64,000 bases of DNA from an uncultured Rivularia sp. Lineage in GTDB: Bacteria > Cyanobacteriota > Cyanobacteriia > Cyanobacteriales > Nostocaceae. The translations under genes were made by a program, and so were the position numbers. The stretch lies in the NCBI GenBank assembly GCA_963665115.1, contig OY762007.1, positions 352,001 to 416,000 on the forward strand, given 5' to 3'. Within the stretch, counting starts at the first letter, position 1; every line of letters starts with the position of its first letter. Under the pieces are notes generated by a model. That model worked only from the letters and a program-made list of their open reading frames with translations, had not been told where the DNA came from and did not search any database. Below, piece after piece: positions 12,929 to 48,244 of this stretch.

Positions 12929-13684
12929 GATTAATGCTGGTTTTTTGTGGAGACGTTGCAATTAATCCTGTCTGTGTAAACTATCTTTTGCTTTACCTGA
13001 GCCAAAAAAATGTGATGAGGCTATGAAACCTGTGTAGAAATTAGCCCAAACAGTAATTCTATTTTTAATAGAATTTAACGAAAGTAATATAATCCTTTGC
13101 TTCTTAAGCGATGTCTCTTTGTGTATATACATAATCCCTTAATCCTTAAATTATTCATTCGCAATGAAAGTCCTCAAAAGTTAACGACTTAATCTAATAC
13201 CTATGTGGATCGCAGCTTTCTTTTGCTATTAACATATAAATTGTGATATGGCTGTGACATAAATTGCGAACAACGTGTGATAAATTTACGCAGAAATATC
13301 CAGATTCTTATGTATAAGAAAAATCAAAAAAATTGATCGGGAAAATTCCTTTAATTTTTATAATTTCCATATTTATACTGACGATATGATAAAGATTTAA
13401 AATTAAGATTTATCTGTTACCAAAAATACTTTCGATATTTCTGACAAATCAAAAAACCTAAAAAAACTCCATGTTTAAGAGTAAAAGAGCAGCTTCCGGG
13501 CATCAGGGCTAGGTCTATCTACCAATCAGTTCGGGGAAATATCAAAGTTGATTTGGTTGAAGCTATACTCAATAACTTGGGTTTATAGGTGATGAATGCT
13601 ATTAGCAATTCCAAAAGAGTTGCAAAAAAAAACCTACGTGCTTGCACGCAGGTTGAGAAGTCATAATTTGCTATTAATTCTAAA

Positions 13685-16226
13685 ATGTCACAGAAAAAGA
13701 AATTTGTCAAAAAGGGACAGGTCTACCGTTCCTTGGTTGCGGCTGCATTGATTGCTAATGGTGTATTTCAATTTATTGCTCCTGTATTAGCTCAAACATC
13801 AGCAGGTGGGGAAATTAAGAACAGAGCTACGGCAACCTACGAAGACCCCCACAGATCCGGGAACAACAATCAATACCACATCCAACGAAGTAGTTGTACA
13901 AGTTGCGGAAGTAGCAGGTATCACCGTTACAGGTGCCGGTACTACATTGAACACGGATGCTGATGGCGATAATACTCCCGATGCTGGCGATGAAGTTTAC
14001 TTTAACTACACCGTTACTAACGTTGGTAATGACTCAACACAGTTCAGAATACCAAACTTAGCAAGTACAACAGGTCCAGCTACTGTTTCTGGCAGTTTGG
14101 AATATAGTACTGATGGTGGTACTACTTGGATACCAATCGACAGCGGTGCAGGAGAAACTGAAGTCACAGTACCGGAGATTCCAGTTGGGGGTACAGTACA
14201 AGTTCGCGTTCCTGTTACAGTCGCAGCTGGTGCTCAAGCAGACGATATTATCACCGTTAAGTTGGGTGATACTCCAGGTGATGCCCAAAACCAACCACGT
14301 AATCCTGATGGTGGTGACATTTACACCGTGGATAACCCCGATGGCACTGGTAATGGTGAAGTAGATGGCGCTCCTGTTAACGGTACTCGTGAAGCTAGTG
14401 CTACTCAAGAAATTCAAGTCGATGCAACCTTAAAGACCTATGCATTGGCAAAGGTACTCAAAGAACGTAGTGACTACAGTAATTCGGGAACTCTAACTGA
14501 TATTACTGATGACACTTTAACCTACGACCTCAGCTTAGAAGTTGAGCAAAATGATTCTACTAACAGTGGAATTACTCCTGCACCATTAGTTGGTACAAAT
14601 ATTACTGTTGATGGTACCGCTAGTCCCCGTATCTTAGTTTCCGATGCAATTCCAGCTGGTACAGACTTGGCTAGCGTGCCTGCTGCACCTCCTGGTTGGG
14701 AAGTCGTTTACACCACAGATGCGGTAACAATAGATGCCAATGCAGCGACTTGGACTACAACAGCCCCGTCTCCTTTATCAACCGTAACCCGCGTTGGTTT
14801 TGTTAACAATCCTGGTATAGTCACCTCTGTTAACCCAGGTCAAACGGTAACTGGTTTCAAGATTAATCTTGTAGTTGAATCAACGGCAACAGCACCGTTA
14901 ACTGTCAACAATATCGCTCAGTTATTCGGTTCGTCTCCTGATAACGATAACGATGCCACCAACAATCCTCCAGTATATGACGAATCTGGTGATCAAAACC
15001 CCAGTAACTTTAATGATGATGGTACACCACTGACAGGAACAGATCCTGATGGTGATGGTATCCCCGAGACATTACCTGATACTGTTGTTGATGATGGTTT
15101 CATTGACGATCCTGCTGATGAAACGGCGACTGGAGTTGACACTGGAAACAATAACAGCGCTACAGGCAGTGAAGGTGGTGAACTGAACCAGTTTGTTATC
15201 GACCCAGATGCAAATGCACTAGTGAATGGACCTGAAGGTAGTCCAGATGCAATTGGTCCTACAGATAATAACGATGACTTCACCAACAAGTCTTCCTTAG
15301 TACCGCCTAATCTTGTACCAGATAATGGTACTACAATCGACCCAGCACCCGTAGCTTTCACGAATACCGTTGAAAATGGTAGTGCTACTCCAACTGATAT
15401 TTCACTGGTTCCCGCCCCACCTGCTAATCCCGCGGATTTACCTACTGGTACTACAGTAACTGTTAGTTATGATGCTGATTCTGTAGTTTACACCTGGGAT
15501 GGTACCAACTTTAATCCTCCTGCTGGTACTCCTCCTATTATCATTACTGCAGTACAACCTGGTCAAGAAGTCAACTATGGTGTTGAAGTCAACTTACCAA
15601 GTGATACACCTTTATCTACTGACTTGAATGACCCCGCAGACCCCAATTCCGGTACAATCGGTGGTTTCCCAGTTCCGATCAGAGCCTTTGTTGACGATGG
15701 AACTCCAGGTTTCGATGGTACAGAAGTTAACAATATCACTATTGACCAGGTATACACTGGCTACTTAAGACTGGATAAAGAGTCTAGAATTCTCAAAGGT
15801 GATGGCCCAGACGTATTAACTGGTCAGGATCAGTTCAGTAAAGATGAGAAGCAGCCTTCGGAAGGCAACTTGATTGAATACCGAATTATCTACAGCAACA
15901 TCTCTGATGCTGAAGCTGGAGATGGCAACATTACTTTAGATGCCGATAATGTGGTAGTCGAAGACGATGGTACCCTTGGTGATAACAACTGGGCAAAAGA
16001 CAATGATGGCGATAACATTATTGATACCAGTAACGTAGTTGGTTCTGCTCAAGATTCTGATGGTGGAAATATCCAATTCTTCAGCGGCGATCCTGCAACA
16101 ACTACCGCACAAGATCAAACAGGTACAGATGCTAATACTGATGTTACTAAGTATGTAGACGAAGTGGCACAACCTGTTGAACCTGGTGCGTCAGGAAACT
16201 TCACCTTCCAACGTAAGGTTAACTAA
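13685..16226 (+). CDS. Secreted acidic multi-Ig DUF11 protein, putative major fibre subunit (apparent +1 frameshift at 13846-13850)
   Basis: Signal peptide ..APVLA-Q; EIKNRATATYEDP|TDPGTTINTTSNEVVVQVAEVAGI; ends GNFTFQRKVN. Confidence 0.8.
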
Positions 16227-16236
16227 ATAAGTTTTG

Positions 16237-16267
16237 AATAGGGATGTTGGATTGCAACATCTCTATT
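16237..16267 (+). terminator. Stem-loop after the putative major subunit
   Basis: AATAGGGATGTTG-GATTG-CAACATCTCTATT. Confidence 0.55.
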
Positions 16268-16302
16268 AATATCAAGTCTGCTTCGTTACCCAGCGCCTGA
16301 CA

Positions 16303-16396: not shown

Positions 16397-16452
16397 CTAT
16401 TGGTATAAATGGTTAAATTTCCTAAAACGTTGATTTAGAAGAGGTATTGACA

Positions 16453-17029
16453 ATGAAAATAAAGCATGGCTCGTTTGTAGGTTTAAGCGCTCTAGCGATT
16501 ATCGCAACTATTTCCTTTAGCAATGCAATTCCTGCTGTCACGAATGCATTCAGTGGTGGAATTGCAAACGCGCAAAATGCTAAGAAGTCACAAGTACAGC
16601 TACGCTTAGAAGCTGAAAAGAAAATTGTTGGCAAAGATGCTCAAGGCAATAGAAAAGTAACTTGGCAAGGATTAAAAGATGGCGCTCAAGTACAGCCAGG
16701 AGATGTATTACGTTACTCTGTAAGTGGTGCAAACAATGGTACTAAAGCAGTCAAAAATCTTGCTATCAATCAGCCAATTCCTAGAGGAATGTCTTTCCTA
16801 CTGAATTCTGCAACTGTAAATGCTAATTCCGGCGCACAAATTACTTACAGTATTAACGATGGTAAGACTTTTGTAAAAAATCCTACTGTCCAAGTTAAGT
16901 TAGCAGACGGTACGGTAGTAACCCGTCCCCGCTCCAGATATTGCTTATACTCACATCCGCTGGAACTTTGGTAAATCCGTTCCTGCAAAAGCAGCAGTTA
17001 ATGGCACTTATCAAGTAAAAGTACGGTAA
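16453..17029 (+). CDS. Secreted single-domain DUF11 protein (apparent +1 frameshift at 16927-16930)
   Basis: GAGG SD; signal peptide; LEAEKK..QPGDVLRYSVSGANNG..INQPIPRG..TRP|APDIAYTHIRWNF..GTYQVKVR*. Confidence 0.8.
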
Positions 17030-17485: not shown

Positions 17486-19051
17486 GTGAGCCGCAAAAAG
17501 AAGCGATACCAGATTTATGGTAGTAGCTGGTTCCGACGGATAGCGGCTACCTTTTTAGCAGGAAGTATTGTTCAAAGTTCTATCTCTACATTTGCTCAAG
17601 AGGTTCCGAGTCCGTCAATTAACAACCAAGCTGAATTTAGTTATAAAAATAAAAAAGCTAGTCAAAATTTTCGGGGAATTACTAGTCAAATACAACTTGC
17701 TCCTTCAACTTCTGACCCAGAATCACCATTAATCGACCCGTTTGGACAAATTTTAGGTTGTAATAGCGAGGAATTAGACGATTATACGGGTTTTAGAGTT
17801 ACTTTATTTAATCCTGACCCTAACGACGCAACAGGAACAGAACCGGGGACAGAGGTTGACTTAACTGTAACCGATGACGATCCAAATACTGCTACTCCTC
17901 AAGGTATACAACCCAATATTACGAATACTAATAATTATGCTGTCACGAATGAAGCAGTTATTGATAGTAACGGTGAGTCTAAACGAGGTGTTTATAACTT
18001 CTTGTTTGACCAAAGCAAGAATCAAACCGATGTAGGTCGTACTTATATTTTAGTTATTAATCCTCCAGAAAATTCTAGTTTTACCGAGCGACGAATAAGA
18101 TTAGAAATTCAAAGTTTAAATGGCAATATCCTGACTTATATTGCTACCGCTTTAGATGGTCAGCCGATTACTGCTACAGGTGAAAATGCCGTTCAAATTT
18201 CTGATACTCAAATTTCCCAAGAATCTGTAGTTATCGATGATGCGGAAAGAATCGGATTAGCTTTAGCCCTTCAATTTAATTTAGATTTATGCTCTCCCGA
18301 GCAAATCCGCATCACTAAAACCGGAGATAGAGCTACAGCAGAACCTGGAGAAACGACTGTTTATCGTCTCTCGTTGAGAAATACAGGTGATGTTGGTTTG
18401 AATGATATAGTCGTTACCGACCAATTCCCCCTCGGATTCAAATTCTTACCCAAATCTGTTCGCGGTCAAATTGGGGATGAAGAAGTTGCTGTAACTACTG
18501 AAACAAATGGTTCAACCGTTACCTTCCGGACTGATGCAACAATTCCGGTTGATGGAGTTCTTAATATTGCTTACGCTGCAAAATTAACTCCCGATGCGGT
18601 GCGTGGTTCGGGTAGGAATACAGCGACTGTTAACGCCGAACGTATTGATAATGATTTTGCTGTCAAAGATGGACCAGCATCCCATTTACTTAAGATTCGT
18701 CCGGGAATTACTTCCGATTGCGGTACTATCATCGGTCGCGTATTTGTTGATAAAAACTTTGATGGGGAACAGCAAGCAGGTGAACCGGGAGTACCAAATG
18801 CGGTGGTCTTCTTAGAAAACGGCAACCGTATTACTACTGACCCAGACGGATTATATTCTGTCAAAAATGTATTGCCAGGTAAACATACAGGCGTTCTGGA
18901 TTTACAGAGTCTACCCGGCTATACTTTGGCTCCCAATGTCAAATTCAAAGAACGCAACAGCCAATCACGACTAGTAAATTTAGAACCTGGTGGAATGGTA
19001 AGAATGAACTTCGCAGTCACTCCTAGCTTTGGTGAGGAGGCAAAGAAATGA
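17486..19051 (+). CDS. Secreted DUF11 plus SdrD-B-like protein, putative base/anchor subunit
   Basis: SINNQAEFSY; ITKTGD..PGE..Y..VTDQFP..RNTATV; GRVFVDKNFDGEQQAGEPG; ATGA overlap with the next gene. Confidence 0.8.
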   Translation: MSRKKKRYQIYGSSWFRRIAATFLAGSIVQSSISTFAQEVPSPSINNQAEFSYKNKKASQNFRGITSQIQLAPSTSDPESPLIDPFGQILGCNSEELDDYTGFRVTLFNPDPNDATGTEPGTEVDLTVTDDDPNTATPQGIQPNITNTNNYAVTNEAVIDSNGESKRGVYNFLFDQSKNQTDVGRTYILVINPPENSSFTERRIRLEIQSLNGNILTYIATALDGQPITATGENAVQISDTQISQESVVIDDAERIGLALALQFNLDLCSPEQIRITKTGDRATAEPGETTVYRLSLRNTGDVGLNDIVVTDQFPLGFKFLPKSVRGQIGDEEVAVTTETNGSTVTFRTDATIPVDGVLNIAYAAKLTPDAVRGSGRNTATVNAERIDNDFAVKDGPASHLLKIRPGITSDCGTIIGRVFVDKNFDGEQQAGEPGVPNAVVFLENGNRITTDPDGLYSVKNVLPGKHTGVLDLQSLPGYTLAPNVKFKERNSQSRLVNLEPGGMVRMNFAVTPSFGEEAKK

Positions 19052-22000
19052 AACGACAATTAAATCGTACAGATACTTTTAATTTAAAGTTAGTCGGTGT
19101 AATGGCAGGAGCTATGACTGTGGTGTTATCCCCAATCATCGCAAGTGCAGAGTCTAAATCACAATCTACAAAACTTGAAGTTACAAAAGGAAAAGATTCC
19201 GAAGATAACAATCAATCTACTCGTTCTAAAAGAATTCTAAAAGTACTTGAAGTCCAAAATCGGAATAGTAAGAATAGTAAGAACAACAATAAAGATAAAA
19301 TTACTCCAGATTTTAATGAAGAGAGTAATACAGATTTGACTGCTAATTTACAAAAATTAGTAGCAGAAGGCAATAATAGCGCAGGATATATTTTAGCTGC
19401 ATTAAAAGCATCGGATATAAATGCAAAAAAAATATCTAGCAGTTTACAGAAGTTGGCAGACGAACGTAAAAAGGCGAATGATGAAAAGCTGATTGCTTTA
19501 AAGTCTGTTGAAGTTTCCGAACCTAAATTATCTCTAGTACAAAAGCTAAAAGTAACGCGCAATCATATCACCGATTCAAAAAAAGAATTGGTTGCTTTAG
19601 AGCCATCTCACAGTGAGAATAAGCTGCTTGAAGAAGATAACATGAATTTAGAGACGCAATCTATTGCGTCTACTATTAAATCTGAGAAAATAACAATTAA
19701 AGAGGCAGAGTATAATCCATTTTTACAAAATAGTTTATTTTCGATAGATATAGATAAAAAGTTATCTGATAACTTGCAAAAAATAAATCCAGCGGATAAT
19801 TATTTAGTTGCTTTAGAACCTTTTCTTGACGAACAAAAGCCAGTTGAATCGAAAATTGGTTCAAATAGTAAAGGTAAATATTTACTCTCTCTAGAACCTT
19901 TTATTAACGAAGAAAAGCCAACACAATCACCACAAAGTTCTACAGATAATTATTTTCTTGCTTCATTAACTAGCGAGAAAAATACATTTGCTTCGCGCAC
20001 ACTAAGCCCTTCGGGCATACTTAGCGAACGCGAACGCACTGAGAATTTTAATACTTGGAATGCTCCCAAACGTGGTAACTATTTTCTTGCTTTAGAACCT
20101 TTTCTTAATGAACAAAAGCTGGTTGAATCGAAAATTAGTCCAAATAGTAATTATTTTCTGGCTTTAGAACCTTTCCTCAAGCAAGAACAATCAGTAGAAT
20201 CTCAAATTCAAAATATATCAGAAAACGAAACAAATGTAAGACAATGGTTTTCTCAACTGGTTGCAATCAATGTATTTGAATCAACCCCTAAGAATCAAAT
20301 ACTAGAAAATGCCCCTACTTTAATTGCAAAGAATTGGAACGCAGATAATTTTACCAATAAAGACTATAGTTTTACATCATTAGTTGCCATAAAACCTTCA
20401 TCTTTTGCAGATAATGCAGATAATTATGAAAATAATTCATCTGAGATGCAACTAGCAGCAAGGTATAGTTCATTTAATTCTGGTGACAATCGCAATCAAG
20501 AGTTTCCGGGAAATAACCTGCTGACAGTTTATTCTAAATCTCCTTTTGGATTACCGAATTTAGAAAATTTAAACCCTAATTTAGCACCAAATTCTACTCA
20601 ATATATTTCTCAATTTCCCAAAGATACTAATAATTCTTCAACTGTAGTAATCCTCTCACCCACACCTGATGCTCTTGTGGATGTGGCTGCTACTCCAATT
20701 ATCGTGCAGTTCCCCGTAGGTAACGAAGTAGAATTACGAGTTAACGGGGAATTATCCGACCGTTCTTTAATTGGACGAACCGAAACAAACCCCGATACCG
20801 ATTTAGTTACGCAGACTTGGTATGGTGTTTCTCTGCAAAATGGAGAAAATGTTATATCGGCTCAGGTTCTTGGCTCCAAGGAACCTCCCGCTACGGTAAA
20901 GATAATGGTAAGGGGTGGAGCGAACGAACTAAAAATAGATACGGTAGAAGCACGGATTCCTGCTGACGGAATTTCTACGGCGACTATTAAAGGTACGTTA
21001 CTCGATGAAAATGGCAATCGTTCCAATCACGATGCAGTTGTTACTTTAGCAACTACTGCTGGGGAATTTGTCGAACCCGATTTTAAACCAGGACAACCGG
21101 GATTTCAAATACAGGCAAAAACTGGAGAATTTACTGCAACTCTAAAATCCGATTTAGAAGCGAAAACTGTACGAATTAAGGCGAAAGCTGGAAAATTAGA
21201 AGCTTTTACACAACTGCAATTTCAAACGGCTTTGCGTCCTAGTTTGATGACGGGGGTTATTGATTTTCGCTTAGGTGCTAGAGGTACAGATTTCTATAGT
21301 AGATTTAAAGATTTCCTCCCAGAAGACGAAGACAACGATACCGAAGTCAAATTCCGTTCGGCTGTATTTGCAACTGGTGCAATTGGTGAATGGCTGGTAA
21401 CTGGTGCTTATGATAGCAGTCGCTCTTTAAATGAAGATTGTAACTGCGATAATCGCTTATTTGGAACTTACCAGTTTAACGAAAATAATTACCCTACTTA
21501 CGGTGATAGTTCTACAGTAAATGCTACGACTCCATCTACTGACAGCGTATATTTACGGTTAGAGCGCTCGTCTCGTACTCCGGGGGCTAATCCCGATTAT
21601 GCGATGTGGGGTGATTACAACACTGAAGAATTTTCTCGTTCTTCACAGCAGTTTACTTCCCTGACTCGTCAGCTACACGGTTTCAAAGCTAATTACAATA
21701 TTGGCAAACTTCAAGCTACAGCTTTCTACGGCAACAATATAGAAGGTTTTCAACGCGATATCTTACCCCCTGACGGAACCAGCGGTTTTTACTTTTTATC
21801 TCGCAGATTAACCGTACCCGGTAGTGAAAGTGTCTTCATTGAATTAGAAGAATTGAATCGTCCCGGTACCGTATTGCAACGGGAACGGTTGAATAGGGGT
21901 GCGGATTACGAGATTGATTACGATAGAGGAACAGTTCTATTCCGCGAACCAGTTTTACGTACAGATGTCAATGAATTTGGTGAAGTTTTGGTAAGACGTA

Positions 22001-24027
22001 TTGTCGTTACTTATCAATACGAAGGAGAAGCAGGAAACGATACTGATATTTACGCGGGAAGATTGCAATATAACTTCTCTCAAGGGGCAGAAAAAGATAG
22101 CTGGTTGGCTACAACTTATCTCCAAGAAAATCAAGGCGATCGCGATTTTGAATTGTACGGTGCGGATGCTCAATTTACTTTTGGTAAGTTAGGTAAAATT
22201 GTTGCCGAATACGCTCGGAGTCGCAACGATTCCGACGAGATGGGAATGGTGGAAGGTGATGCTGTCAGGGCTGAAGCTGAAGCAGAATTTATTAAAGGTT
22301 TACGCGCTCGCGCTTATTACCGTTTTGCAGATACTGGATTTGCAAACAACGCTACTATTAGCTTTGTCCCCGGACAAACTCGTTACGGAGCGCAGGTTAA
22401 CGGAAGAGTTTCCAAGACAACCAATTTACGGTTTCAGTACGACCGTGAAGACAACTTTGGGATTGCACCTCAACCGCTGGATACTTTTGAAGAGTTCTTT
22501 TCACCTCGTACAACAGCTGTTCCTGGTAGTGAAGTTGATAACTCTTTAACTACAATTTCTGCTGGTATCGTACAGAGATTGGGTAAAGCTAGCTTATCAG
22601 TAGATTGGATCAATCGGGAACGAGAAGATCGGATATCACCCCAAACTCTCAATACAGATTCTAGTCAATTACGTTCTCGTCTTAATGTTCCTATTGCCAA
22701 AAAACTTTCTTTCTTAGCTCAAAACGAAACTACATTATCTGACGATACAGATGCAGTTTACCCAGATAGAACTGTCTTCGGAATTAACTGGGAAGCGATT
22801 CAAGGTATTAATCTTTCGTTAACGCAACAGTTTTTTACTCAAGGACAATTTGACGGTAATTCTATCACCAGTTTCAATGTCAATGGGGAACATAACTTTG
22901 GAACGGATACCACTGTTACCGGACGTTTCTCTGTATTGGGTGGTTCTAACGGACCTACTACTCAAGGTGCTTTAGGTTTAAAACAAGGTTTAACTATAGC
23001 TCCCGGATTGCGGTTGAGTATGGCTTACGAACACGTTTTTGGCGACTTCTTCGGTCGTAACGGTTCCGGAGTACAATTCGCACAACCTTTCGCTGTAGGT
23101 TCGAGTACTGCGGCTTTAGGTTTCAATTCCGGAGATAGTTATAGTGTCGGCTTGGAATACACCGATAATCCAGACTTCAAAGCCAGCGCTCGGTTTGAAC
23201 GCAGAAGTTCTTCAAGCGGAAATAATACCGTAATTTCCGCAGGTGCTACTGGTAAAATTTCATCTTCAATTACAGCTTTAGCACGCTATCAACAAGCAGG
23301 TTCGAGCAATCAAACTTTGAGAGCATTAGGAGATACGGCTAATTTAAGAGTTGGTTTAGCATATCGCAATCCTAAAAACGATAAACTTAATGCTTTATTG
23401 CGTTATGAATATCGTAAAAATCCTTCAACGATTCCCGAAAGTATTTTACTCGGAAGCGGTTCTGGAGCAGAAGACCATACTTTTGCCATTGAAACAATCT
23501 ACGCACCGAATTGGCAATGGGAATTTTATGGTAAATATGCTTTACGCAACAGTACCACTTACTTAGCTAACGATTTTTCATCCAGCACTTCAACCAATTT
23601 AGGACAGTTACGCGCTACCTATCGCTTGGGATACAGTTGGGATTTAGTCGGAGAAGCACGAGTAATTAAGCAATCTGACTATACGGAAACTGGTTTTGTT
23701 GTCGAAGCAGGTTATTATCTAACCCCGAATTTAAGAGTAGCTGGAGGTTACGCTTTTGGGGAAATAGACGACCGCGATTTTGATGGTAGTCGTTCCGCTA
23801 GCGGACCATATTTGGGTGTGACAATGAAGCTTAACCAGTTATTTAGCGGCTTTGGTTTACAGAAAAAAGTACCCCGCAAAGAAATAGAAGCACGACAAGG
23901 CTTATTGAATAAACTTAGAAACGAGAAAAACCCAACCACTCAAACATTAACCGAAAGAATCAAAAGAGCTAACACAAAGAATGAAATAGAAAAAAAAGCT
24001 GTTGTAAAGACTGACGACGAGGAGTAA
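19048..24027 (+). CDS. Large putative outer-membrane beta-barrel protein with Ig-like N-terminal domains
   Basis: Signal peptide; low-complexity N-terminus; invasin-like IPADGISTATI; long region of alternating aromatic strands ending GPYLGVTMKLNQLF. Confidence 0.75.
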   Translation: MKRQLNRTDTFNLKLVGVMAGAMTVVLSPIIASAESKSQSTKLEVTKGKDSEDNNQSTRSKRILKVLEVQNRNSKNSKNNNKDKITPDFNEESNTDLTANLQKLVAEGNNSAGYILAALKASDINAKKISSSLQKLADERKKANDEKLIALKSVEVSEPKLSLVQKLKVTRNHITDSKKELVALEPSHSENKLLEEDNMNLETQSIASTIKSEKITIKEAEYNPFLQNSLFSIDIDKKLSDNLQKINPADNYLVALEPFLDEQKPVESKIGSNSKGKYLLSLEPFINEEKPTQSPQSSTDNYFLASLTSEKNTFASRTLSPSGILSERERTENFNTWNAPKRGNYFLALEPFLNEQKLVESKISPNSNYFLALEPFLKQEQSVESQIQNISENETNVRQWFSQLVAINVFESTPKNQILENAPTLIAKNWNADNFTNKDYSFTSLVAIKPSSFADNADNYENNSSEMQLAARYSSFNSGDNRNQEFPGNNLLTVYSKSPFGLPNLENLNPNLAPNSTQYISQFPKDTNNSSTVVILSPTPDALVDVAATPIIVQFPVGNEVELRVNGELSDRSLIGRTETNPDTDLVTQTWYGVSLQNGENVISAQVLGSKEPPATVKIMVRGGANELKIDTVEARIPADGISTATIKGTLLDENGNRSNHDAVVTLATTAGEFVEPDFKPGQPGFQIQAKTGEFTATLKSDLEAKTVRIKAKAGKLEAFTQLQFQTALRPSLMTGVIDFRLGARGTDFYSRFKDFLPEDEDNDTEVKFRSAVFATGAIGEWLVTGAYDSSRSLNEDCNCDNRLFGTYQFNENNYPTYGDSSTVNATTPSTDSVYLRLERSSRTPGANPDYAMWGDYNTEEFSRSSQQFTSLTRQLHGFKANYNIGKLQATAFYGNNIEGFQRDILPPDGTSGFYFLSRRLTVPGSESVFIELEELNRPGTVLQRERLNRGADYEIDYDRGTVLFREPVLRTDVNEFGEVLVRRIVVTYQYEGEAGNDTDIYAGRLQYNFSQGAEKDSWLATTYLQENQGDRDFELYGADAQFTFGKLGKIVAEYARSRNDSDEMGMVEGDAVRAEAEAEFIKGLRARAYYRFADTGFANNATISFVPGQTRYGAQVNGRVSKTTNLRFQYDREDNFGIAPQPLDTFEEFFSPRTTAVPGSEVDNSLTTISAGIVQRLGKASLSVDWINREREDRISPQTLNTDSSQLRSRLNVPIAKKLSFLAQNETTLSDDTDAVYPDRTVFGINWEAIQGINLSLTQQFFTQGQFDGNSITSFNVNGEHNFGTDTTVTGRFSVLGGSNGPTTQGALGLKQGLTIAPGLRLSMAYEHVFGDFFGRNGSGVQFAQPFAVGSSTAALGFNSGDSYSVGLEYTDNPDFKASARFERRSSSSGNNTVISAGATGKISSSITALARYQQAGSSNQTLRALGDTANLRVGLAYRNPKNDKLNALLRYEYRKNPSTIPESILLGSGSGAEDHTFAIETIYAPNWQWEFYGKYALRNSTTYLANDFSSSTSTNLGQLRATYRLGYSWDLVGEARVIKQSDYTETGFVVEAGYYLTPNLRVAGGYAFGEIDDRDFDGSRSASGPYLGVTMKLNQLFSGFGLQKKVPRKEIEARQGLLNKLRNEKNPTTQTLTERIKRANTKNEIEKKAVVKTDDEE

Positions 24028-24146: not shown

Positions 24147-26309
24147 ATGTATAAAAATACTAAAAAAAACTCTTTTGAAAAGTTCAACGCAGCAAAACGT
24201 TTATTAATTAGCCTACCAGTTTTATTACTAACGGCTCCAAATATCGCTTTTGCTCAACCAACTACAGCTTTAAGTTTAAGCGTAACAGTCAACAGCAACC
24301 AGGATGGAAGCATACAGGCTGATGATAAGCTAACATTACGCGAAGCAATTGCCATCGTCAACGGTAATCTATCTGTAGAAAAACTCAGTGCTGCTGAAAA
24401 ATCTTTGGTTTCATCTGGGAATAACCAGTCTCGGATTGAATTTAATCTTGCTCCCGGACAAACTACAATCACCTTAGAAAGCATTCTCCCAGCTTTAACA
24501 AATCCAGGATTGATAGTTGACGGTACCTCTCAACCAGGATACAAAGCCGATAAATCTGCAACCGCAGAAATTGAGATTCCCATTCCAGTTGTAGAAATCA
24601 CTTCCGCTGCCGACAAACAAGTATTTCGCGGTTTAACGGTAGCAGCCGATAATATTACAGTTCAGGGATTGAGTATATATGGGTTTAGTTCAAAACATAC
24701 AGATACAGCTAGCTTACCTCCAGGGGATGTTGTTGTTGTACCCTATCGTTCCGTTTTAATACAAGATAGGGAGACAAGGGGACAAGGAGACGAGGAGAAT
24801 TCTTCTCAGCCACCCAAAAATGTCAACATTAAAAATAACTGGTTGGGTATTACCTCAGAAGAACAAGTTCCTAATAAAACTTCGGCTTTTGGGGTTTCTG
24901 TATTTGATGCAACTGGTACAAATATCAACCGTAACCTGATTGCAAATCATGAAGGTAGCGGAATTATTACTGGAAAATTAGCAGAAAATACTCAAATTCA
25001 ATCAAATATCATCGTTGGTAATGGAATAGCTGGTGTTCCCGATGCAATTAGACTGGAAGGTCGAATTAATAATTCTCAAGTTACTTCAAACTTAATTTGC
25101 GCCAACGACGGCAGCGGAGTGTACTTGTTTAAGCCAGAAGGCTCAGTACAAATACAGTCAAACAATATTAAGTATAACGGTAGACGCTTGCGACGTGCGG
25201 GTGTTTACTTGATGGGTAATAACCATCAGGTAGCTAATAACCAAATCACCAATCAACCAGGTTCCGGAGTTGCGATTACAGCTTATCCCGACAGCAAAGG
25301 AAACGTTGTCAGAGACAACAGCTTTGGCAATATAGAAGGATTGAGTATCGACCTCAACTACAGAAATACTGCCAGCGTCCGCGATTTTCAACGAGGAGAC
25401 GGTCCCAACCCACCGAGAAATTCTGGAAATCGTCGTAAGGATACCGCAAACGGTGCTATCAACGCTCCAGAGTTTCTCAGTTCCGAATTTATTATTATTA
25501 ACGGTAAAGTAAATATTGACGGAAAAGCCGACCCAGGTAGCGAAATTGATATTTATAAAGTAAATCCCAATAGCAGACAGCAAATAGATTTATATCCCGC
25601 ATATTCCGCATTAGGGGAAGTAATTGGCAGAGTTAAAACTGACGAAAAAGGTAGATTCAAAGCCACCTTTACAAACCTGCAACCTGGGGAAATTATTAGT
25701 GCGATCGCCACTCAAAATAAATACGGAACCTCAGAACCAGCAGCGAATGCAATAGTTAAATCAGTTGGTAATTCCGGAATCCAAAATCCACAATCCCCAA
25801 TCCAAAATTTTGAAACCCCCAACTGTACAACCCGTCCGGTAGCACCAACACCAGAACCACCAATTCCTCAACCACCAATTCCAGATCCAATACCCGAACC
25901 ACCCGCACCAATTCGTTTAAGCGTACCTAGAAACGTCCACTTTGCACTAGATAAAGACTTTATCAGTCCCAAAAGTGGAGAAGTTCTAGATAAAATCGCT
26001 GAAGTCATGGAGCAATATCCCAACATAGTCATTGAACTACAAGGACATACCGACTCCCGCGCTAGCGTTGCTTATAACCAAGATTTGGCGAAAAGACGCG
26101 CAACAAACGCGAGAAATTACCTAGTTAAAAGAGGTATCGCACCCGAAAGAATGACCATTCGTTCCTTTGGAGAACGGAAATTACGGACAGAGGAAAATAA
26201 TCGAGTAGATTACGCACGCAACCGTCGAGTTGAAGTATTGTTCTTTGATGTTAGGGGAATTGACATCGAATTTGAGAATCAGGAAAGAGATTTGCAGATA
26301 GAAAAGTAA
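24147..26309 (+). CDS. Right-handed beta-helix protein with Pro linker and C-terminal OmpA domain
   Basis: VNSNQDG..LTLREAI; I.NN.I repeats; VHFALDK..GHTDSRASVAYNQDLAKRRA..RNRRVE. Confidence 0.88.
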   Translation: MYKNTKKNSFEKFNAAKRLLISLPVLLLTAPNIAFAQPTTALSLSVTVNSNQDGSIQADDKLTLREAIAIVNGNLSVEKLSAAEKSLVSSGNNQSRIEFNLAPGQTTITLESILPALTNPGLIVDGTSQPGYKADKSATAEIEIPIPVVEITSAADKQVFRGLTVAADNITVQGLSIYGFSSKHTDTASLPPGDVVVVPYRSVLIQDRETRGQGDEENSSQPPKNVNIKNNWLGITSEEQVPNKTSAFGVSVFDATGTNINRNLIANHEGSGIITGKLAENTQIQSNIIVGNGIAGVPDAIRLEGRINNSQVTSNLICANDGSGVYLFKPEGSVQIQSNNIKYNGRRLRRAGVYLMGNNHQVANNQITNQPGSGVAITAYPDSKGNVVRDNSFGNIEGLSIDLNYRNTASVRDFQRGDGPNPPRNSGNRRKDTANGAINAPEFLSSEFIIINGKVNIDGKADPGSEIDIYKVNPNSRQQIDLYPAYSALGEVIGRVKTDEKGRFKATFTNLQPGEIISAIATQNKYGTSEPAANAIVKSVGNSGIQNPQSPIQNFETPNCTTRPVAPTPEPPIPQPPIPDPIPEPPAPIRLSVPRNVHFALDKDFISPKSGEVLDKIAEVMEQYPNIVIELQGHTDSRASVAYNQDLAKRRATNARNYLVKRGIAPERMTIRSFGERKLRTEENNRVDYARNRRVEVLFFDVRGIDIEFENQERDLQIEK

Positions 26310-28099: not shown

Positions 28100-29935
28100 A
28101 TGGAATTTATATTTAAACACTTACTTGGCTTATATAGCGCCGAATCTGCAAAAAATAAACCCAAAAACAAGAGATTTTCCCAAAAATTAATTATAAATCT
28201 CGGATATATGGGAGTTTTTCTGTTTCAGTTTTTAATAGCTTCGCCAAAAGTTTTAGCTCAAAGTAACTTTTGCTCCAGCCCTTACAACATGGTTTACTCG
28301 GGGCATTTCCCTAATAGGATTGATGCGATTCACGTTGATAGCGGTGCTTCTGTGCCGTTGACAACATCAAATATTGCTGCTAACACTAACAGTCTCGCTA
28401 GCGACCATGTTAATAACTTAGTTTATTATGCAGAAAACCAGTCTATTTATGCCTGGAGTCCAATTACTAATACACATACTGTGATTACAAGTAATATAAA
28501 AGGCTTCGCTGGCACTAGCAATATTAGCAGTCTTAGTAGTGGTGGTGCAGCTTTTTATAATGGCTCGCTCTACCTGGGTATTGATGAAAATCAACATACT
28601 GGTGGTGCTGAAGTGTATAAAGTTGATTTTGTACCTGCTTCCAATGGTCAGACAGTTCAAAGCGTGACTTCGCTTAATATCGCTAGTTTGATTCCACCTA
28701 GCGATTGGGGGGATCTTAGTATTGATAATAATGGTGTAATGTTAGGTGCTACCCCCGGTGGCTTTTGGACTTATAACCTAAACAACGGTACATACACCTC
28801 TCTTTCGAGTAACCTTCCAGGAGGTCAGCACCAACTAGCTAAAGATGGCCAAGGTCGCCTATGGGCTGTAGTTTACACGCCGACTAAATTCATCTTTCAA
28901 GTTCAGGTTGTTGGTAATAGCATTCAACAAGTAGGTCAAACTATTTCTGTAGATCCTCATGACACTAATGATGCTGCTGAATGTGTAATTGGTGAGTCTA
29001 GTATAGGCGACCGTGTTTGGAATGATGCTAATGAAAATGGCGTGCAAGATGCTGGAGAAGATGGTATTGAGAATGTCACAGTTGACTTGTACTGGGACAT
29101 TAACGGCAATGGTCAAATTGATAATGGTGACGATCCTCTATTAGCAACCCAAACCACAGGTACTAATGGTAATTATGATTTTCCTGACCTAATTTTTGGT
29201 AATTATATTGTTAAAGTTTCTGATACCAATGGGGTGCTTACAAACGCTTCATTGACTAGTGCGTCGGATACCCACAGCGTAAATTTATTACCTGGCACTG
29301 TAGATTATAATGATGCAGACTTTGGTTATAAACTGGCAATTGCCAGTAACCCTGACGTATTAATAGTCAAACGCATCACCGCAATAAACGGCGATCGCAC
29401 TAAAAACCCCAACGACAATACTCCCTTAAATACCTTCGTCGATGATACAGTTTCTGCTCGTAAAGATGATGATAACAATCCCAACTGGCTAGATAATTAC
29501 CTCATTGGTGCCATTGATGCAGGTAAAGTAAAACCCGGTGACGAAATTGAATATACGGTTTACTTCCTTAATGCTGGAAGTAGCGATGGAGAAAACCTGC
29601 GAATATGCGACAGAATTACTCCCGACCAAGATTTTAAATTAAATGCTTACGGTACTGGTAACGACTTGCAATTAAAATTAGACAGCAAGGCTGTAATTAA
29701 TTTAACCAGTGCTTCCGATACTAATGACCGCGCTCAATTAATTCCAACAACTGGTAGTGTTCCAGCTAACTGTAACCTCAAGGGTACAAACGATAGCGGC
29801 ACATTACAAATTGACATTACAGGTACAGGAAATACTACCCAATCCGATTTAAACAGCGTACCCGGTTCTACAGGAAAAGGAACCCCCGATAACTCCTACG
29901 GATTCTTCAGATTTACAACCACCGTCAAACCATAA
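28100..29935 (+). CDS. Adhesin A: signal, Cys-bracketed propeller, SdrD-B, truncated C-terminal DUF11
   Basis: VLA-QSNFC..NDAAEC; SIGDRVWNDANENG; VKRIT..PGDEIEY..ICDRI..YGFFRFTTTVKP*. Confidence 0.8.
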   Translation: MEFIFKHLLGLYSAESAKNKPKNKRFSQKLIINLGYMGVFLFQFLIASPKVLAQSNFCSSPYNMVYSGHFPNRIDAIHVDSGASVPLTTSNIAANTNSLASDHVNNLVYYAENQSIYAWSPITNTHTVITSNIKGFAGTSNISSLSSGGAAFYNGSLYLGIDENQHTGGAEVYKVDFVPASNGQTVQSVTSLNIASLIPPSDWGDLSIDNNGVMLGATPGGFWTYNLNNGTYTSLSSNLPGGQHQLAKDGQGRLWAVVYTPTKFIFQVQVVGNSIQQVGQTISVDPHDTNDAAECVIGESSIGDRVWNDANENGVQDAGEDGIENVTVDLYWDINGNGQIDNGDDPLLATQTTGTNGNYDFPDLIFGNYIVKVSDTNGVLTNASLTSASDTHSVNLLPGTVDYNDADFGYKLAIASNPDVLIVKRITAINGDRTKNPNDNTPLNTFVDDTVSARKDDDNNPNWLDNYLIGAIDAGKVKPGDEIEYTVYFLNAGSSDGENLRICDRITPDQDFKLNAYGTGNDLQLKLDSKAVINLTSASDTNDRAQLIPTTGSVPANCNLKGTNDSGTLQIDITGTGNTTQSDLNSVPGSTGKGTPDNSYGFFRFTTTVKP

Positions 29936-29947
29936 CCCACAACTAAT

Positions 29948-30070
29948 GTAGCGGGGAGACGTAGCAATGCTACGTCTCCCCGCAATGCGAACACAACACA
30001 AACAACCTCAGCCGATAGATCCTAATCGCAACCCTATATACGGAGACGTAGCATTGCGCCCCGTCTCTAC
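29948..30070. repeat. REPIN-like inverted REP pair between adhesins A and B
   Basis: Forward REP variant, linker homologous to the RAYT array, reverse REP ending CTCTAC. Confidence 0.75.
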
Positions 30071-30104
30071 AAAAAAATTATTTTCAATATTGAACAAAAC
30101 ACCC

Positions 30105-32675
30105 ATGCTAAATTCTAAACTGAAATCAAACCTTCCCCGCAAAAATAAACGAAATCGCCGCAATAAACGTATTTACGATTATCGTCCTTTGCTGATGACA
30201 TTTTTACTTACAGGTAGTAACTGGTTGTCAGCATTGCCATTATTAGCCGCCAGTCCGACACCTGGAACGGTAATTGATAACCAAGCAACTGGTAGTTTTA
30301 CTGACCCAAATGACAATAATAACGAAGTACAAATTGAATCAAACGTAGTTCAAGTAGAAGTTGCTGAAGTTGCGGGTATCACTATTTCCCAATCAGCCGT
30401 CCCAGAAGAAGCCCCCAGTGGTGTTAGCGGTGCGGGAGCTAATCAAGGCAATGGTGATATTAACCCCGATGATATTATTTACTTTACTTATAAAATTACT
30501 AACGTTGGTAACGATCCTACACAATTCTTTATTCCTGACGCACCTTCTTCAGTTAACAATGGTAATCTTAACGGAAATATTCAAATTATTGAATATGACC
30601 CCGATGGTTCTGGTGCAACTGCTGCAACTGATTTAAGTGGTTCTCCTATAACTATTCCCAGTGGTGGAATTAGTACAGGAGATGCTGCTGCTTTAGATTT
30701 ACCTAACGGTTCTATTCCCCCTGAAGGTACAGTAACAATTCGCGTTCCCATCAAAGCTAGTTCCACATTGATTGATGGGGATACAGTAACGGTGGTCATG
30801 GGTGATACTAACCCTGTAGGCGGACAAAACCAAGTTTACGCTGCTGGGACCAATGATGTTTATACCCAAGATAATCCAGATGGGACAACGGGGGAAACCA
30901 ATGGGACTCCAATAAATGGAGACGCTACAAATCATCGACAGGAAGCGAGTTTTAGTCAAGAAGTGACAATCGTGGCAAATCCTAGCGGTCCCGTTGTTAC
31001 TACAAACTTTTGCTCCAGTGCTTACAACATGATTTACTCGGGGCATTTCCCTAATAGGATCGATGCGATTCACGTTGATAGCGGTGCTTCTGTGCCGTTG
31101 ACAACATCAAATGTTGCTGCTAACACTAACAGTCTCGCTAGCGACCATGTTAATAACTTAGTTTACTATGCAGAAAACCAGTCTATTTATGCCTGGAGTC
31201 CAATTACTAATACACATACTGTGATTACAAGTAATATAAAAGGCTTCGCTGGCACTAGCAATATTAGCAGTCTTAGTAGTGGTGGTGCAGCTTTTTATAA
31301 TGGCTCGCTCTACCTGGGTATTGATGAAAATCAACATACTGGTGGTGCTGAAGTGTATAAAGTTGATTTTGTACCTGCTTCCAATGGTCAGACAGTTCAA
31401 AGCGTGACTTCGCTTAATATCGCTAGTTTGATTCCACCTAGCGATTGGGGGGATCTTAGTATTGATAATAATGGTGTAATGTTAGGTGCTACCCCCGGTG
31501 GCTTTTGGACTTATAACCTAAACAACGGTACATACACCTCTCTTTCCAATAACCTTCCAGGAGGCCAGCACCAACTAGCTAAAGATGGCCAAGGTCGCCT
31601 ATGGGCTGTAGTTTACACGCCGAATAAATTCATCTTTCAAGTTCAGGTTGTTGGTAATAGCATTCAACAAGTAGGTCAAACTATTTCTGTAGATCCTCAT
31701 GACACTAATGATGCTGCTGAATGTGTAATTGGTGAGTCTAGTATAGGCGACCGTGTTTGGAATGATGCTAATGAAAATGGCGTGCAAGATGCTGGAGAAG
31801 ATGGTATTGAGAATGTCACAGTTGACTTGTACTGGGACATTAACGGCAATGGTCAAATTGATAATGGTGACGATCCTGTATTAGCAACCCAAACCACAGG
31901 TACTGATGGTAATTATGATTTTCCTGACCTAATTTTTGGTAATTATATTGTTAAAGTTTCCGATACCAATGGAGTGCTTACAAACGCTTCATTGACTAGT
32001 GCGTCCGATACCCACAGCGTAAATTTATTACCTGGCACTGTAGATTATAATGATGCAGACTTTGGTTATAAACTGGCAATTGCCAGCAATCCCGATGTCA
32101 TTCTAGTCAAACGCATCACCGCAATAAACGGCGATCGCGATAAAAACCCCAACGACAATACTCCCTTAAATACCTTTGTCGATGATACAGTTTCTGCTCG
32201 TAAAGATGATGATAACAATCCCAACTGGCTAGATAATTACCTTATTGGTGCCATTGATGCAGGTAAAGTAAAACCCGGTGACGAAATTGAATATACGGTT
32301 TACTTCCTCAATGCTGGAAGTAGCGATGGAGAAAACCTGCGAATATGCGACAGAATTACTCCCGACCAAGATTTTAAATTAAATGCTTACGGTACTGGTA
32401 ACGACTTGCAATTAAAATTAGACAGCAAGGCTGTAATTAATTTAACCAGTGCTTCCGATACTAATGACCGCGCTCAATTAATTCCAACAACTGGTAGTGT
32501 TCCAGCTAACTGTAACCTCAAAGCCACCAACGATAACGGCACATTACAAATTGACATTACAGGTACAGGAAATACCACCCAATCTGATTTAACAACCGTA
32601 CCCGGTTCCACAGGAAAAGGAACACCCGATAATTCCTACGGATTCTTCAGATTTACAACCACCGTCAAACCCTAA
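30105..32675 (+). CDS. Adhesin B: donor hairpin, Ig domain, propeller, SdrD-B, truncated DUF11
   Basis: Start by homology to 32868; PGTVIDNQATGSFTD..ESNVVQVEVAEVAGI; 3' part near-identical to adhesin A. Confidence 0.8.
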   Translation: MLNSKLKSNLPRKNKRNRRNKRIYDYRPLLMTFLLTGSNWLSALPLLAASPTPGTVIDNQATGSFTDPNDNNNEVQIESNVVQVEVAEVAGITISQSAVPEEAPSGVSGAGANQGNGDINPDDIIYFTYKITNVGNDPTQFFIPDAPSSVNNGNLNGNIQIIEYDPDGSGATAATDLSGSPITIPSGGISTGDAAALDLPNGSIPPEGTVTIRVPIKASSTLIDGDTVTVVMGDTNPVGGQNQVYAAGTNDVYTQDNPDGTTGETNGTPINGDATNHRQEASFSQEVTIVANPSGPVVTTNFCSSAYNMIYSGHFPNRIDAIHVDSGASVPLTTSNVAANTNSLASDHVNNLVYYAENQSIYAWSPITNTHTVITSNIKGFAGTSNISSLSSGGAAFYNGSLYLGIDENQHTGGAEVYKVDFVPASNGQTVQSVTSLNIASLIPPSDWGDLSIDNNGVMLGATPGGFWTYNLNNGTYTSLSNNLPGGQHQLAKDGQGRLWAVVYTPNKFIFQVQVVGNSIQQVGQTISVDPHDTNDAAECVIGESSIGDRVWNDANENGVQDAGEDGIENVTVDLYWDINGNGQIDNGDDPVLATQTTGTDGNYDFPDLIFGNYIVKVSDTNGVLTNASLTSASDTHSVNLLPGTVDYNDADFGYKLAIASNPDVILVKRITAINGDRDKNPNDNTPLNTFVDDTVSARKDDDNNPNWLDNYLIGAIDAGKVKPGDEIEYTVYFLNAGSSDGENLRICDRITPDQDFKLNAYGTGNDLQLKLDSKAVINLTSASDTNDRAQLIPTTGSVPANCNLKATNDNGTLQIDITGTGNTTQSDLTTVPGSTGKGTPDNSYGFFRFTTTVKP

Positions 32676-32867: not shown

Positions 32868-35800
32868 ATGCTAAATCCTAAATTTAAACCTAACCTACAG
32901 CGCAAGAAACGTATTTACGATTATCGTCCTTTGCTGATGACGTTTTTACTTACAGGTAGTAACTGGTTGTCAGCATTGCCATTGTTAGCCGCTAATTCGA
33001 CACCTGGAACCGTAATTGATAACCAAGCTACTGGTAGTTTCACTGACCCAAACGATAGTAATAACGAAGTACAAATTGAATCAAACGTAGTTCAAGTAGA
33101 AGTTGCTGAAGTTGCGGGTATCACTATTTCCCAATCAGCAATCCCAGAAGAAGCCCCCAGCGGTGTCACTGATGCGGGAGCTAATCAAGGCAATGGTGAT
33201 ATTAATCCCGATGACGTTATTTACTTTACATATAAAATTACTAACGTCGGTAACGACCCTACACAATTCTTTATTCCCGATGCTCCTTCTTCAGTTAATA
33301 ACGGTAGTTTAAACGGAAATATTCAAATTATTGAATATGACCCCGATGGTGCTTCAGCAGTAGATTTAACTAGTGATAATATTACTGTTCCCAGCAACGG
33401 TGATACTACTGGAAGTTTATTAAATGGAGTTGCTAATACTAATGATGGTTCTGTTCCTGTGGGGGGTAGTATTACTATTCGCGTTCCCATTAAAGCTGAT
33501 TCCAACTTAAGTGATGGGGATACGGTAACTGTAATCATGGGTGATACGGGAAGCAATGATAATTCCGCAGCAACGCAAAACCAAGTTTACGCTGTGGGTA
33601 CTAATGATGTTTACACAGAAGATAATCCAAACGGGACAACGGGGGAAACTGATGGGACTCCAATAAATGGAGACGCTACGAATAATCGTCAGGAAGCTAG
33701 TTTCAGTCAGGATGTGACGGTGAGTGCTATTAACACAAACCCATTTTCCTGTGCCAGAGCGTTTTATCAAGTTATTGACAACCAACTCAAAAAACTAGAT
33801 CCACTCACAGGTAATTATCTCAATATAGGTAGTCCGGCACCCGGTCACTACAATGCCGCAGCATATAACTCAATTGACAATTTCATCTACGGCTATGGTC
33901 GTGAGGGTTCGATTGCAGGTCACTTGGTCAAAATTAGCCAAGATGGTGCCTTACAAGACTTGGGAGCGCCGACAAAAATTAAAGGGGTTGGCTCTCTCGA
34001 GAGTGCCCATTCGGGCGATTTTGATAATAGCGGCAATTTGTGGCTGCGTTCGAGTGCTTCGGGAGCGTTTATTTATCGCCTCAATGTCCAAACTAATGAG
34101 TATGAAGGGTTTGCGTTCAGCCAAGATATTGGAAACGTAGCCGACCTTGTGTATATTAACGGCAAGCTATACGGTGCCCAATCTAACAAGCTTTACATTA
34201 TTGACATTACTAATCCGGTTTCTGGCACCACGCTATCAGTGACAACCGCAACTGTTTCTGGATTACCTGCAAGTACTGGTAATCCTAGTTTCTATGGTGC
34301 TGCCTACACAGATATCGCAGACAATTTATATGTTTCTCGTAACACCAACGGCGCGGGCAGTGGAGAACTGTATCAAGTTATTGGCTACGATACGGGAACG
34401 CCCAAGGCGGTCAAACTGGTGGATACTCAGACGACTAACAAAAACGATGGCATGAGCTGCCCGAATGCACTACCACCACTTGACTTGGACTTAGGCGATG
34501 CGCCAGATTCCGGTGCAGGTACAGGAAGCAACAACTACAATACACTTGCGATTGATGAGGGTCCTTTACATATTATTAATAGCAATATTTACTTAGGTAG
34601 TGCTGTGACTGCTGATACTGATGGATTTGGTGACGGCACTGATAATAACGGCGATGCTAGCGATGATGCCAATGATGATGGCGTGCAGTTGAGCAGTGCT
34701 TCCCTGCAAGGTCAGAGTTTGACCGCAGGTCAAACAGTAAACCTAGATATTACAACCGCAGGAAGTGGTAAACTAAGCGTCTGGTTTGACTGGAACCAAG
34801 ACGGTGATTTCGACGATGCTGACGAGAAAGTAGCTACGGATATTGCACCAAGTAGCAATGCAATTTCTCTACCCGTAAACGTACCAGCAACAGCTACCGA
34901 AGGAACTACTTACGCTCGCTTCCGTTATAGTTCGCAAGATGGACTTACACCGACAGGTACAGCCAGCGATGGGGAAGTGGAAGATTATCAAGTTGAAATT
35001 GCAGCAGCACCAACAGTCTTTGACTACGGTGACGCACCGAATGATTTATCTTCAATTGACGGTGATTTAAGTTCCGCTTACCCCACCCTAGATGCGGAAA
35101 ATGGAGCCAAGCATACAATTGACGGTAGTACTTTCCTCGGCTCAGGTGTCAATAACGAAAGCGACGGACAACCCACTTTAAATGCTGACGGTGATACCGA
35201 TGATGGTGTTACCTTCCCCACTCTTGGTAGTAATACCGCATTAGTAGTTGGTCAAAACAACACTATTACTGTGGAAGCTTCCAAAACTGGCGTACTCAAT
35301 GCTTGGGTTGACTGGAACCAAGATGGTGACTGGGACGATCCAGGAGAACAAATCGCTACCAACGAGGCTCTTAGTGCTGGCTCAAATACACTTAACGTTA
35401 ATCCAGGCACAACTACTCCTCATGGTGCTACTTACGCCCGCTTCCGGTTTAGCAGCCAATCTAATTTATCGCCAACGGGAGCAGCCAGCGACGGTGAAGT
35501 GGAAGACTATAAAGTGAACGTTGTTATCCCAGAAATTACTGCTTGTTTAGCACCATTACTGAATGGTGGTTTCGAGTCACCCGCAGTTAATGGCTCAACA
35601 CCAACTCCATTAGAAGTTTTTCAATCAGGACGAATTGTTGCTTATCGAGAATCAGAAGTTGATGCTTGGGCTTATATTTCCAGCAATCCTAATAGTTCAA
35701 AATCAGATCGTTCACCAACTGGTTTTGAACAACGTAACGCCATTGAATTGTGGAGAACTGGCAACTTATTGAATGTACCACCTCACGAAGGTAATCAGTT

Positions 35801-48228: not shown

Positions 48229-48244
48229 GATAATTTTTGTTTAT

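Follow-up and report, generated by a model that had tools for sequence, protein, structure and literature searches.

We propose that the protein encoded by the first gene of the cluster described here assembles into a head-to-tail fibre, in which a domain split between the two ends of the chain is completed in trans by a neighbouring subunit and locked by a Lys-Asn bond. This predicted fibre is our best reading of the evidence and we hold it to be likely. Taken part by part, completion of the truncated C-terminal domain (D4) by an N-terminal hairpin is the firmest element and highly probable, completion in trans is also very probable, and a covalent Lys-Asn link in trans is predicted to be probable.

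The window (the whole 64,000-nucleotide stretch of DNA analysed) comes from a genome of one 8.7-Mb contig, and its flanking genes and closest named homologs are typical of heterocyst-forming filamentous cyanobacteria. It holds a same-strand cluster made of genes 1-5 and then five adhesin-like genes, reaching position 47285. The operon is uncharacterised and common among filamentous cyanobacteria, gene 1 having been matched in 40 of 61 related genomes; the DUF7925 family found within gene 1 was present in 21 of 201 genomes sampled across the phylum. Upstream of gene 1, 30 bases before its start, a 10-bp hairpin (13631-13654) preceded by an A run scores as terminator-like on the minus strand; promoter and terminator scans gave scores no better than chance. 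Gene 1 and its 3' flank comprise the following features.

13685..13792, plus strand: start of gene 1 and Sec-type signal peptide of 36 aa, ending VLA/Q (from sequence; cleavage site by eye)
13793..13904, plus strand: donor hairpin, predicted strands F and G of a CLIPPER-like domain (profile register, conservation and pLDDT)
13846..13850, plus strand: C run with one extra base, which breaks the gene 1 frame (run comparison)
13905..14429, plus strand: D1, complete Ig-like domain without the first-strand Lys (model and sequence)
14430..15209, plus strand: D2, DUF7925 with an acidic extension; predicted intramolecular triad K 14460, D 14643 and N 14910
15210..15752, plus strand: D3, complete Ig-like domain (model and sequence)
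15753..16226, plus strand: D4, truncated acceptor of 157 residues that stops after strand E; Lys 15777, Asp 15963
16237..16268, plus strand: stem-loop 3' of gene 1, copy of a dispersed palindromic repeat (pattern search)

The encoded protein therefore reads, in order, signal peptide, a 39-residue two-strand segment, D1, D2, D3 and D4. The signal-peptide pattern was repeated in intact relatives of gene 1. D2 matched the DUF7925 profile PF25546 with an E value of 3e-72, and its triad is K262/D323/N412 in P0002, the intact ortholog used for modelling (866 aa, with 85% identity across the matching portion), against K264/D326/N415 in Q8YS00, for whose DUF7925 domain Table 1 of PMC12617251 predicts an intramolecular bond between K264, D326 and N415.

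Judged from its sequence, D4 lacks its last two strands, and those strands are located behind the signal peptide. The final strand of D4 has the pattern PGxxGxFxFxRxVN, at which the protein stops in 118 of 119 close homologs, while the longer tails seen among distant homologs are short and rich in Pro, Gly and Thr. The gene 1 protein ends FTFQRKVN, with no C-terminal LPXTG sortase signal or membrane anchor. The earlier note had placed a Lys and an acid on the truncated domains and a conserved Asn on the N-terminal extension, and the motifs that it named are all present. The Lys of LDKES is encoded at 15777-15779. VVEDDG was found as described, but it offers three acids, of which the first Asp (15963-15965) falls in the catalytic register. 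The extension does carry the Asn, the predicted bonding residue of IKNRATATY (13820-13822), and turns out to be a two-strand hairpin, F plus G, with a second near-invariant Asn at 13884-13886 (kept in 120/122 homologs). In gene 1 the bonding Asn thus sits at the mature N-terminus, with the Lys about 670 and the acid about 730 residues further on; the triad stands in one domain only in the natural fusions described below.

The K-D-N bond of CLIPPER domains has been solved structurally (PDB 9IFR, PF01345; PMC12617251), with K on the first strand, the acid after the third and N on the penultimate strand, and the split triad resembles this layout. To place gene 1 in this register, a profile was built from 45 complete CLIPPER-type domains of these loci, in which K is kept in 41/45, D in 45/45 and N in 45/45. 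In hhalign comparisons D4 covered profile columns 1-95 and the hairpin the adjoining columns 96-132, with no gap between the two. The acid aligned to the invariant D, and N47 to the invariant N; both are weak matches of low probability (E 1e-4 to 8e-4), the hairpin matching the complete-domain profile at E 5e-4. The Lys was left unaligned by hhalign owing to a 20-residue insertion after strand A. Its register was taken from an LxLxK pattern, which corresponds to LxIxK of complete CLIPPER domains, and from the predicted first strand at residues 714-723. An hhalign comparison with the gene 3 domain alone was also tried and rejected, as it misplaced the Lys. Neither gene 1 nor D4 alone gave a Pfam DUF11 (PF01345) or TIGR01451 match, and DUF11 matches were found for gene 2, gene 3 and the adhesin acceptors. 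PDB sequence searches with five queries yielded no credible relative, and 9IFR was not among their matches.

Conservation was assessed over P0002 and 121 full-length representatives with a median identity of 42%. K718 was kept in 122/122, residue 780 was acidic in 122/122 (Glu in 114 and Asp in 8) and N47 was kept in 121/122, as the earlier note had led us to expect of the N-terminal Asn; all three were intact together in 121/122. The catalytic position is Asp in gene 1 of the window and Glu in most relatives. K718 was the sole Lys column conserved above 90%, and 13 further Asn columns also exceeded this level. The homologs are related by descent and the counts overstate their independence. 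By comparison, the intramolecular D2 triad was intact in 98 of the 112 homologs that have D2, its residues going missing together; the split triad is therefore more constrained than the recognised D2 isopeptide triad.

The 121 representatives remained from 150 after the exclusion of 29, namely six fusions, 21 sequences that are fragments or miss one end, and two full-length proteins missed by the donor HMM. Those two retain N, K and E, and no counter-example was found among full-length split proteins within the 29. Mutual-information covariation over 240 sequences (Neff 142) recovered the D2 pairs K262-D323 (z 5.9) and D323-N412 (z 7.3) and placed no donor-D4 pair within the top 500; as the key residues are invariant, this is uninformative either way.

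Eight larger proteins were found to contain D4 and the hairpin in one chain (P0128, P0134, P0135, P0176, P0179, P0258, P0392 and P0393), six of them being the excluded representatives and two being further long proteins. In these fusions the hairpin follows D4 after no more than about 10 residues (for example FQRKVN, about 8 residues, IxN). The proteins are 54-69% alike over the D4-hairpin stretch and are otherwise unrelated giant proteins with RTX, T9SS, cadherin, Calx-beta or FG-GAP domains, one of them recorded under Runella defluvii. The acid and Asn were kept in 8/8 and the Lys in 6/8, against 122/122 for Lys in the split forms. A fusion also occurs in the single-contig genome G043 (L038:10353-10943, minus strand; counted once with P0392), which argues that the arrangement is not merely a metagenome chimera. 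The fusions show that D4 and the hairpin are able to occupy the order and spacing of one domain. Loss of the Lys is confined to chains whose two parts are already connected by a peptide bond, which fits a linking role, the numbers being small. We also observed that the fusions are circularly permuted modules (D3-D4-hairpin, some running into D1-D2) in giant RTX/T9SS proteins, that the junction lies almost exactly at the mature N-terminus, and that one permuted copy, in a Bacteroidota genome, has 51% identity to cyanobacterial D4.

A structural model of a natural fusion reached a pLDDT of only 51. Its residues 7-203 aligned to Ig-like domains, with unrelated folds scoring equally high. Against SpaD D2 it gave Z 7.0 and an rmsd of 3.4 over 127 aligned residues, with end points that place the SpaD Lys one residue off the D4 Lys; 9IFR was absent among the matches listed for this model. 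The top Foldseek match of this low-confidence model was TTHA1873 of Thermus thermophilus (7WRK/7WWO, 160 aa; E 4e-4). Thermus gave a sub-threshold DUF7925 match; TTHA1873 is a possible relative, which sequence search did not confirm.

The remaining genes of the cluster distribute donors and acceptors differently, as listed here.

16447..17029, plus strand: gene 2, small signal-peptide protein, acceptor only; one extra base at 16927
17486..19051, plus strand: gene 3, donor hairpin (Asn 17624), complete CLIPPER domain and SdrD_B (Pfam)
19048..24027, plus strand: gene 4, 1659 aa; Ig domains plus a long C-terminal part similar to outer-membrane proteins
24147..26309, plus strand: gene 5, beta-helix and OmpA peptidoglycan-binding domain (profile match)
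28100..29935, plus strand: adhesin-like subunit, acceptor only (VKRIT, ICDRI); candidate tip
29967..32675, plus strand: minor subunit, donor (IDNQATGSF) and acceptor
32868..37148, plus strand: minor subunit, donor and acceptor; GEVED and DUF6923 domains
37360..39992, plus strand: minor subunit, donor and acceptor; broken near 37775 and 39500
44486..47285, plus strand: adhesin-like subunit, TIGR04226 isopeptide domain inside the chain, acceptor at the C-terminus (VKRIT, ICDLI) and donor absent; frame broken near 46590

Gene 2 keeps its Lys (16618) and has Gln (16771) at the catalytic position, both invariant in 13/13, with a DUF11 match in 12/13. From these residues we infer a candidate non-covalent chaperone or cap, which may bind donor hairpins reversibly. 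Gene 3 has no truncated acceptor; its donor Asn was kept in 118/120 and its internal CLIPPER triad (K 18317, D 18419 and N 18617) in 120/120; it is a candidate base adaptor. Gene 4 gave Big_1/Invasin_D3 matches below cut-off and was assigned to an unnamed outer-membrane cluster (Atlas 0.97); it is a candidate for a predicted assembly or anchor barrel. Neither gene 2 nor gene 4 matched a PapD-family chaperone or PapC-family usher in Pfam or NCBIfam.

The (V/I/M)KRIT and xCD motifs attributed to the adhesin genes were confirmed. Across the window and 20 further loci, Lys and Asp were kept in 27/27 adhesin acceptor ends (24 Lys and 25 Asp by regular expression, the others by eye, one of them across a frame break). 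A donor motif was recognised by regular expression in the same ORF for 5/27 adhesins and for one more across breaks, leaving 21/27 without one, some of these ORFs being fragments. The adhesin genes between 28100 and 39992 are built as mosaics in which near-identical blocks recur: three of the genes have one block in common (propeller-like plus SdrD_B), and two alternative acceptor types occur. This suggests that tip subunits may be shuffled by recombination.

Mobile and repeated sequences were also noted at this locus. Inserted within the cluster at 26325-27900, a palindromic repeat (AGACGTAGCA..GCTACGTCT) occurs nine times around a Y1 transposase gene (26903-27478), in a layout that resembles REP/RAYT. 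An IS607-like element with a resolvase-type ORF (by eye) and TnpB (NF040570) lies between adhesin genes at 42288-43860, and at 47350-49147 a tandem pair of nearly identical ORFs, each about 300 aa long, presumably encodes Rpn/PD-(D/E)XK proteins. Two further CLIPPER-type genes lie outside the cluster: one with a gene 3-like domain at G000:C1 970520-971461 (minus strand), and one at G000:C1 3276570-3279299 (minus strand) whose product has an acceptor-type domain at its end and may be an orphan tip subunit.

Donor-only gene 3 and the donor-less adhesins have no partner in cis, so that for them only trans pairing is possible. The earlier claim that the triad is completed in trans is supported by the register, by conservation, by the natural fusions and by these donor-only and acceptor-only neighbours.

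Whether the completed domain would also be locked is the point on which a donor-hairpin polymer held non-covalently has to be weighed. In such a polymer, comparable to TasA or chaperone-usher pili, the K, E/D and N side chains would make a buried network of polar contacts. This is improbable, but it has some support: gene 1 homologs have Glu in place of Asp in 114/122, whereas all CnaA-type examples in Table 1 of PMC12617251 use Asp; gene 2 retains its Lys without the acid, which means that Lys conservation is by itself not proof of bonding; and, in the accessible account of BsaA, N35A oligomers are still SDS-resistant without heating (bioRxiv 10.1101/2024.11.04.621531). However, all three residues occupy CLIPPER positions, their conservation is stricter than that of the D2 triad, the Lys is gone in two of the eight chains already joined by a peptide bond, and the adhesin acceptors keep the canonical Asp in 27/27. 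We therefore favour the covalent Lys-Asn link.

The length of the fibre is a separate matter. The earlier note had taken first position in the cluster, a long upstream region and a following stem-loop to fit the most abundant subunit. The first position was borne out, the order gene 1-gene 2-gene 3 being kept with gene 1 first in 13/13 relatives that show all three, and a stem is indeed present. The stem is, however, a copy of a genome-wide repeat, whose pattern was matched 439 times, at a density of about 50 per Mb where one shuffled Mb gave 10; abundance is weakly supported. Some stem follows the stop codon in 13/14 relatives, as judged by eye with no control.

Exoproteome reports bear on the same question. 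In Anabaena PCC 7120, All3292 (Q8YS00) is listed with All3288 in the exoproteome supplement of PMC10957091; by family and residue numbering it is likely to be the ortholog of gene 1. The gene also appears in the FurC-site table of PMC10406281, and gave no match in the main text of PMC4390845 or in the supplements of PMC10936207. All3289 is described in the portion of PMC9705863 available as a 1289-aa protein and possible outer-membrane anchor, a description compatible with gene 4. In Synechococcus PCC 11901, PMC11424642 records the detection of three DUF11 proteins under neighbouring tags (185, 512 and 2030 aa), most strongly that of 185 aa; the tag just before this trio was not found in its exoproteome tables, the orthology being drawn from tags and lengths only.

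A real covalent trans link confined to a short fixed stalk (adhesin, one or a few copies of gene 1, gene 3 and the barrel) would agree with a generic repeat 3' of gene 1 and with the missing tag of the presumed gene 1 protein in this exoproteome, which holds its neighbours. We consider such a stalk unlikely, since gene 1 carries both ends and stands first in all 13 relatives, the stem recurs in relatives, and under-detection is possible, given that trypsin would release from P0002 no more than 14 peptides 7-35 residues long. A longer fibre of repeated gene 1 subunits remains our preferred reading.

It may also be asked whether gene 1 closes on itself, its own hairpin filling its own D4 to give a covalently cyclised monomeric or dimeric adhesin, with trans pairing left to the minor genes. 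An AlphaFold2 single-chain model of the intact ortholog (88 sequences) had a mean pLDDT of 88, with the hairpin at 94 and D4 at about 97, which suggests a docked hairpin, and low-confidence hinges at residues 248-253 and 518-522 might permit closure. Such a monomer model could, however, place the hairpin solely in cis or unbound, since it offers no alternative partner. A Foldseek search with the full model returned only multi-Ig matches with TM below 0.16. Donor and acceptor persist in gene 1 homologs whatever the number of spacer domains, which is three in 111, two in 9 and one in 1 of 121 (D1 is absent in 1 of 121); with both ends kept over so variable a spacer, a closed ring is not easily allowed. 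Together with the neighbours that require trans partners, this makes self-closure quite unlikely, and trans pairing between subunits the better account.

Lastly, the coding sequence at 13685-16226 is not a single ORF in the window. It is split into a 92-aa ORF (signal peptide and Asn strand) and an 806-aa ORF (the remainder) by one extra C in the run of five at 13846-13850, and gene 1 is a single open frame in all 19 relatives examined. Sequencing runs X2 and X3 show zero substitutions against the window over 5.2-5.5 kb yet lack the extra bases at 13846 and at 16927 in gene 2, so that sequencing error is the likeliest cause, and the extra C at 13846 is probably such an error. Run X1, otherwise identical to the window, has both extra bases, and run X4, from a diverged strain, has neither. 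In total the window holds five breaks in four genes (13846, 16927, ~37775, ~39500 and ~46590), all of them +1 at C runs, the comparison with the runs covering the first two. Elsewhere, a +1 break of similar context was seen at G000:C1 ~4063176, and +1 breaks often stand after GA. Decay of the cluster in this strain, whatever its role in relatives, would account for five breaks and for their presence in X1, but is very improbable given their absence from the otherwise identical X2 and X3, their single type and the occurrence of a similar break far outside the cluster. The assembly probably carries systematic errors, and pseudogene calls in this genome therefore need caution.

SpyTag/SpyCatcher and SnoopTag/SnoopCatcher are split isopeptide domains, engineered from intact pilin or adhesin domains, that reconstitute and bond. 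Here, by contrast, the split appears natural and is repeated head to tail. A-ENA fibres and an Enterococcus donor-strand pilus are reportedly further systems for comparison. Chaperone-usher pili have a donor-less tip adhesin, a small periplasmic partner and a large outer-membrane protein. Their incomplete Ig domain is completed by the N-terminal extension of the next subunit (Fim and Pap; PMC9715654, as far as consulted), and an incomplete Ig domain with an N-terminal donor was found here too, but as two strands where those pili use one, non-covalent strand, and with no PapC or PapD family match in this cluster. The archaeal thread protein Saci_0406, in the same source, likewise combines donor-strand complementation with an apparent intermolecular amide to Asn, but from the N-terminal amine of subunit n+2 rather than from a Lys, and in a different fold.

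The closest likeness is to BsaA of Clostridium perfringens, for which the accessible text reports mutants that support a donor-strand N-K lock with a catalytic Glu (bioRxiv 10.1101/2024.11.04.621531). The N-terminal donor Asn, the receiver Lys with catalytic Glu and the autocatalytic, sortase-free intermolecular bond are shared, and since such a lock is already described for BsaA the Lys-Asn chemistry is not new. The differences lie in the fold, in a donor of two strands and in the diderm machinery. BsaA has a TasA-type fold, one interdigitated strand, SipW processing and a Gram-positive host, whereas here a CnaA/CLIPPER-like domain is split A-E/F-G within multidomain subunits, alongside tip and base subunits and an outer-membrane partner. 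At E values up to 0.1 gene 1 matched only DUF7925 and no TasA-family profile, and no SipW signal peptidase was found among the 15 cluster ORFs scanned. Overall, the cluster works like BsaA and is laid out like a chaperone-usher operon, yet matches the families of neither.

With CLIPPER and DUF7925 (PF25546) domains the relationship is one of family, DUF7925 being the central domain of the gene 1 protein. The main text of PMC12617251, as far as seen, treats intramolecular bonds only, with no mention of split domains and no use of the word 'donor', while here the terminal domain is split across the chain ends and mostly has Glu. DUF11 proteins, and not a split-domain mechanism, are mentioned in the consulted parts of PMC13297417 and bioRxiv 2025.08.19.671072. 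No description of split CLIPPER domains or of this system was found in the literature searched, which largely left subscription journals uncovered.

We propose the following assembly. After Sec export, gene 2 would hold the free hairpin, its Gln in place of the acid allowing binding without locking, and the gene 4 outer-membrane protein would be the site where hairpins are then transferred to acceptor domains. Each subunit would complete D4 of the next with its hairpin, Lys 15777 bonding with the neighbour's Asn 13820 and the acid at 15963 being the likely catalyst. Repeated junctions would give a covalent head-to-tail fibre, with an acceptor-only adhesin as tip cap, repeated gene 1 copies as shaft and donor-only gene 3 as the chain end at the base, while D2 would contribute a separate intramolecular bond. 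That this amounts to a separate class of diderm pilus, with two-strand hairpin exchange, a Lys-Asn seal, a dead-acceptor chaperone and a giant outer-membrane usher, we regard as an even chance; the fibre would then be covalently continuous from tip adhesin to base, and its junctions a natural Tag/Catcher family.

If the proposal is true, gene 2 and the Lys-less fusions would be built-in negative controls, and hairpin/acceptor pairs possible protein-ligation tools. Bacteria with an outer membrane would be able to build sortase-free covalent pili distinct from chaperone-usher, type IV and type V systems, and this cyanobacterial operon would gain a function, with a likely bearing on mats and biofilms.
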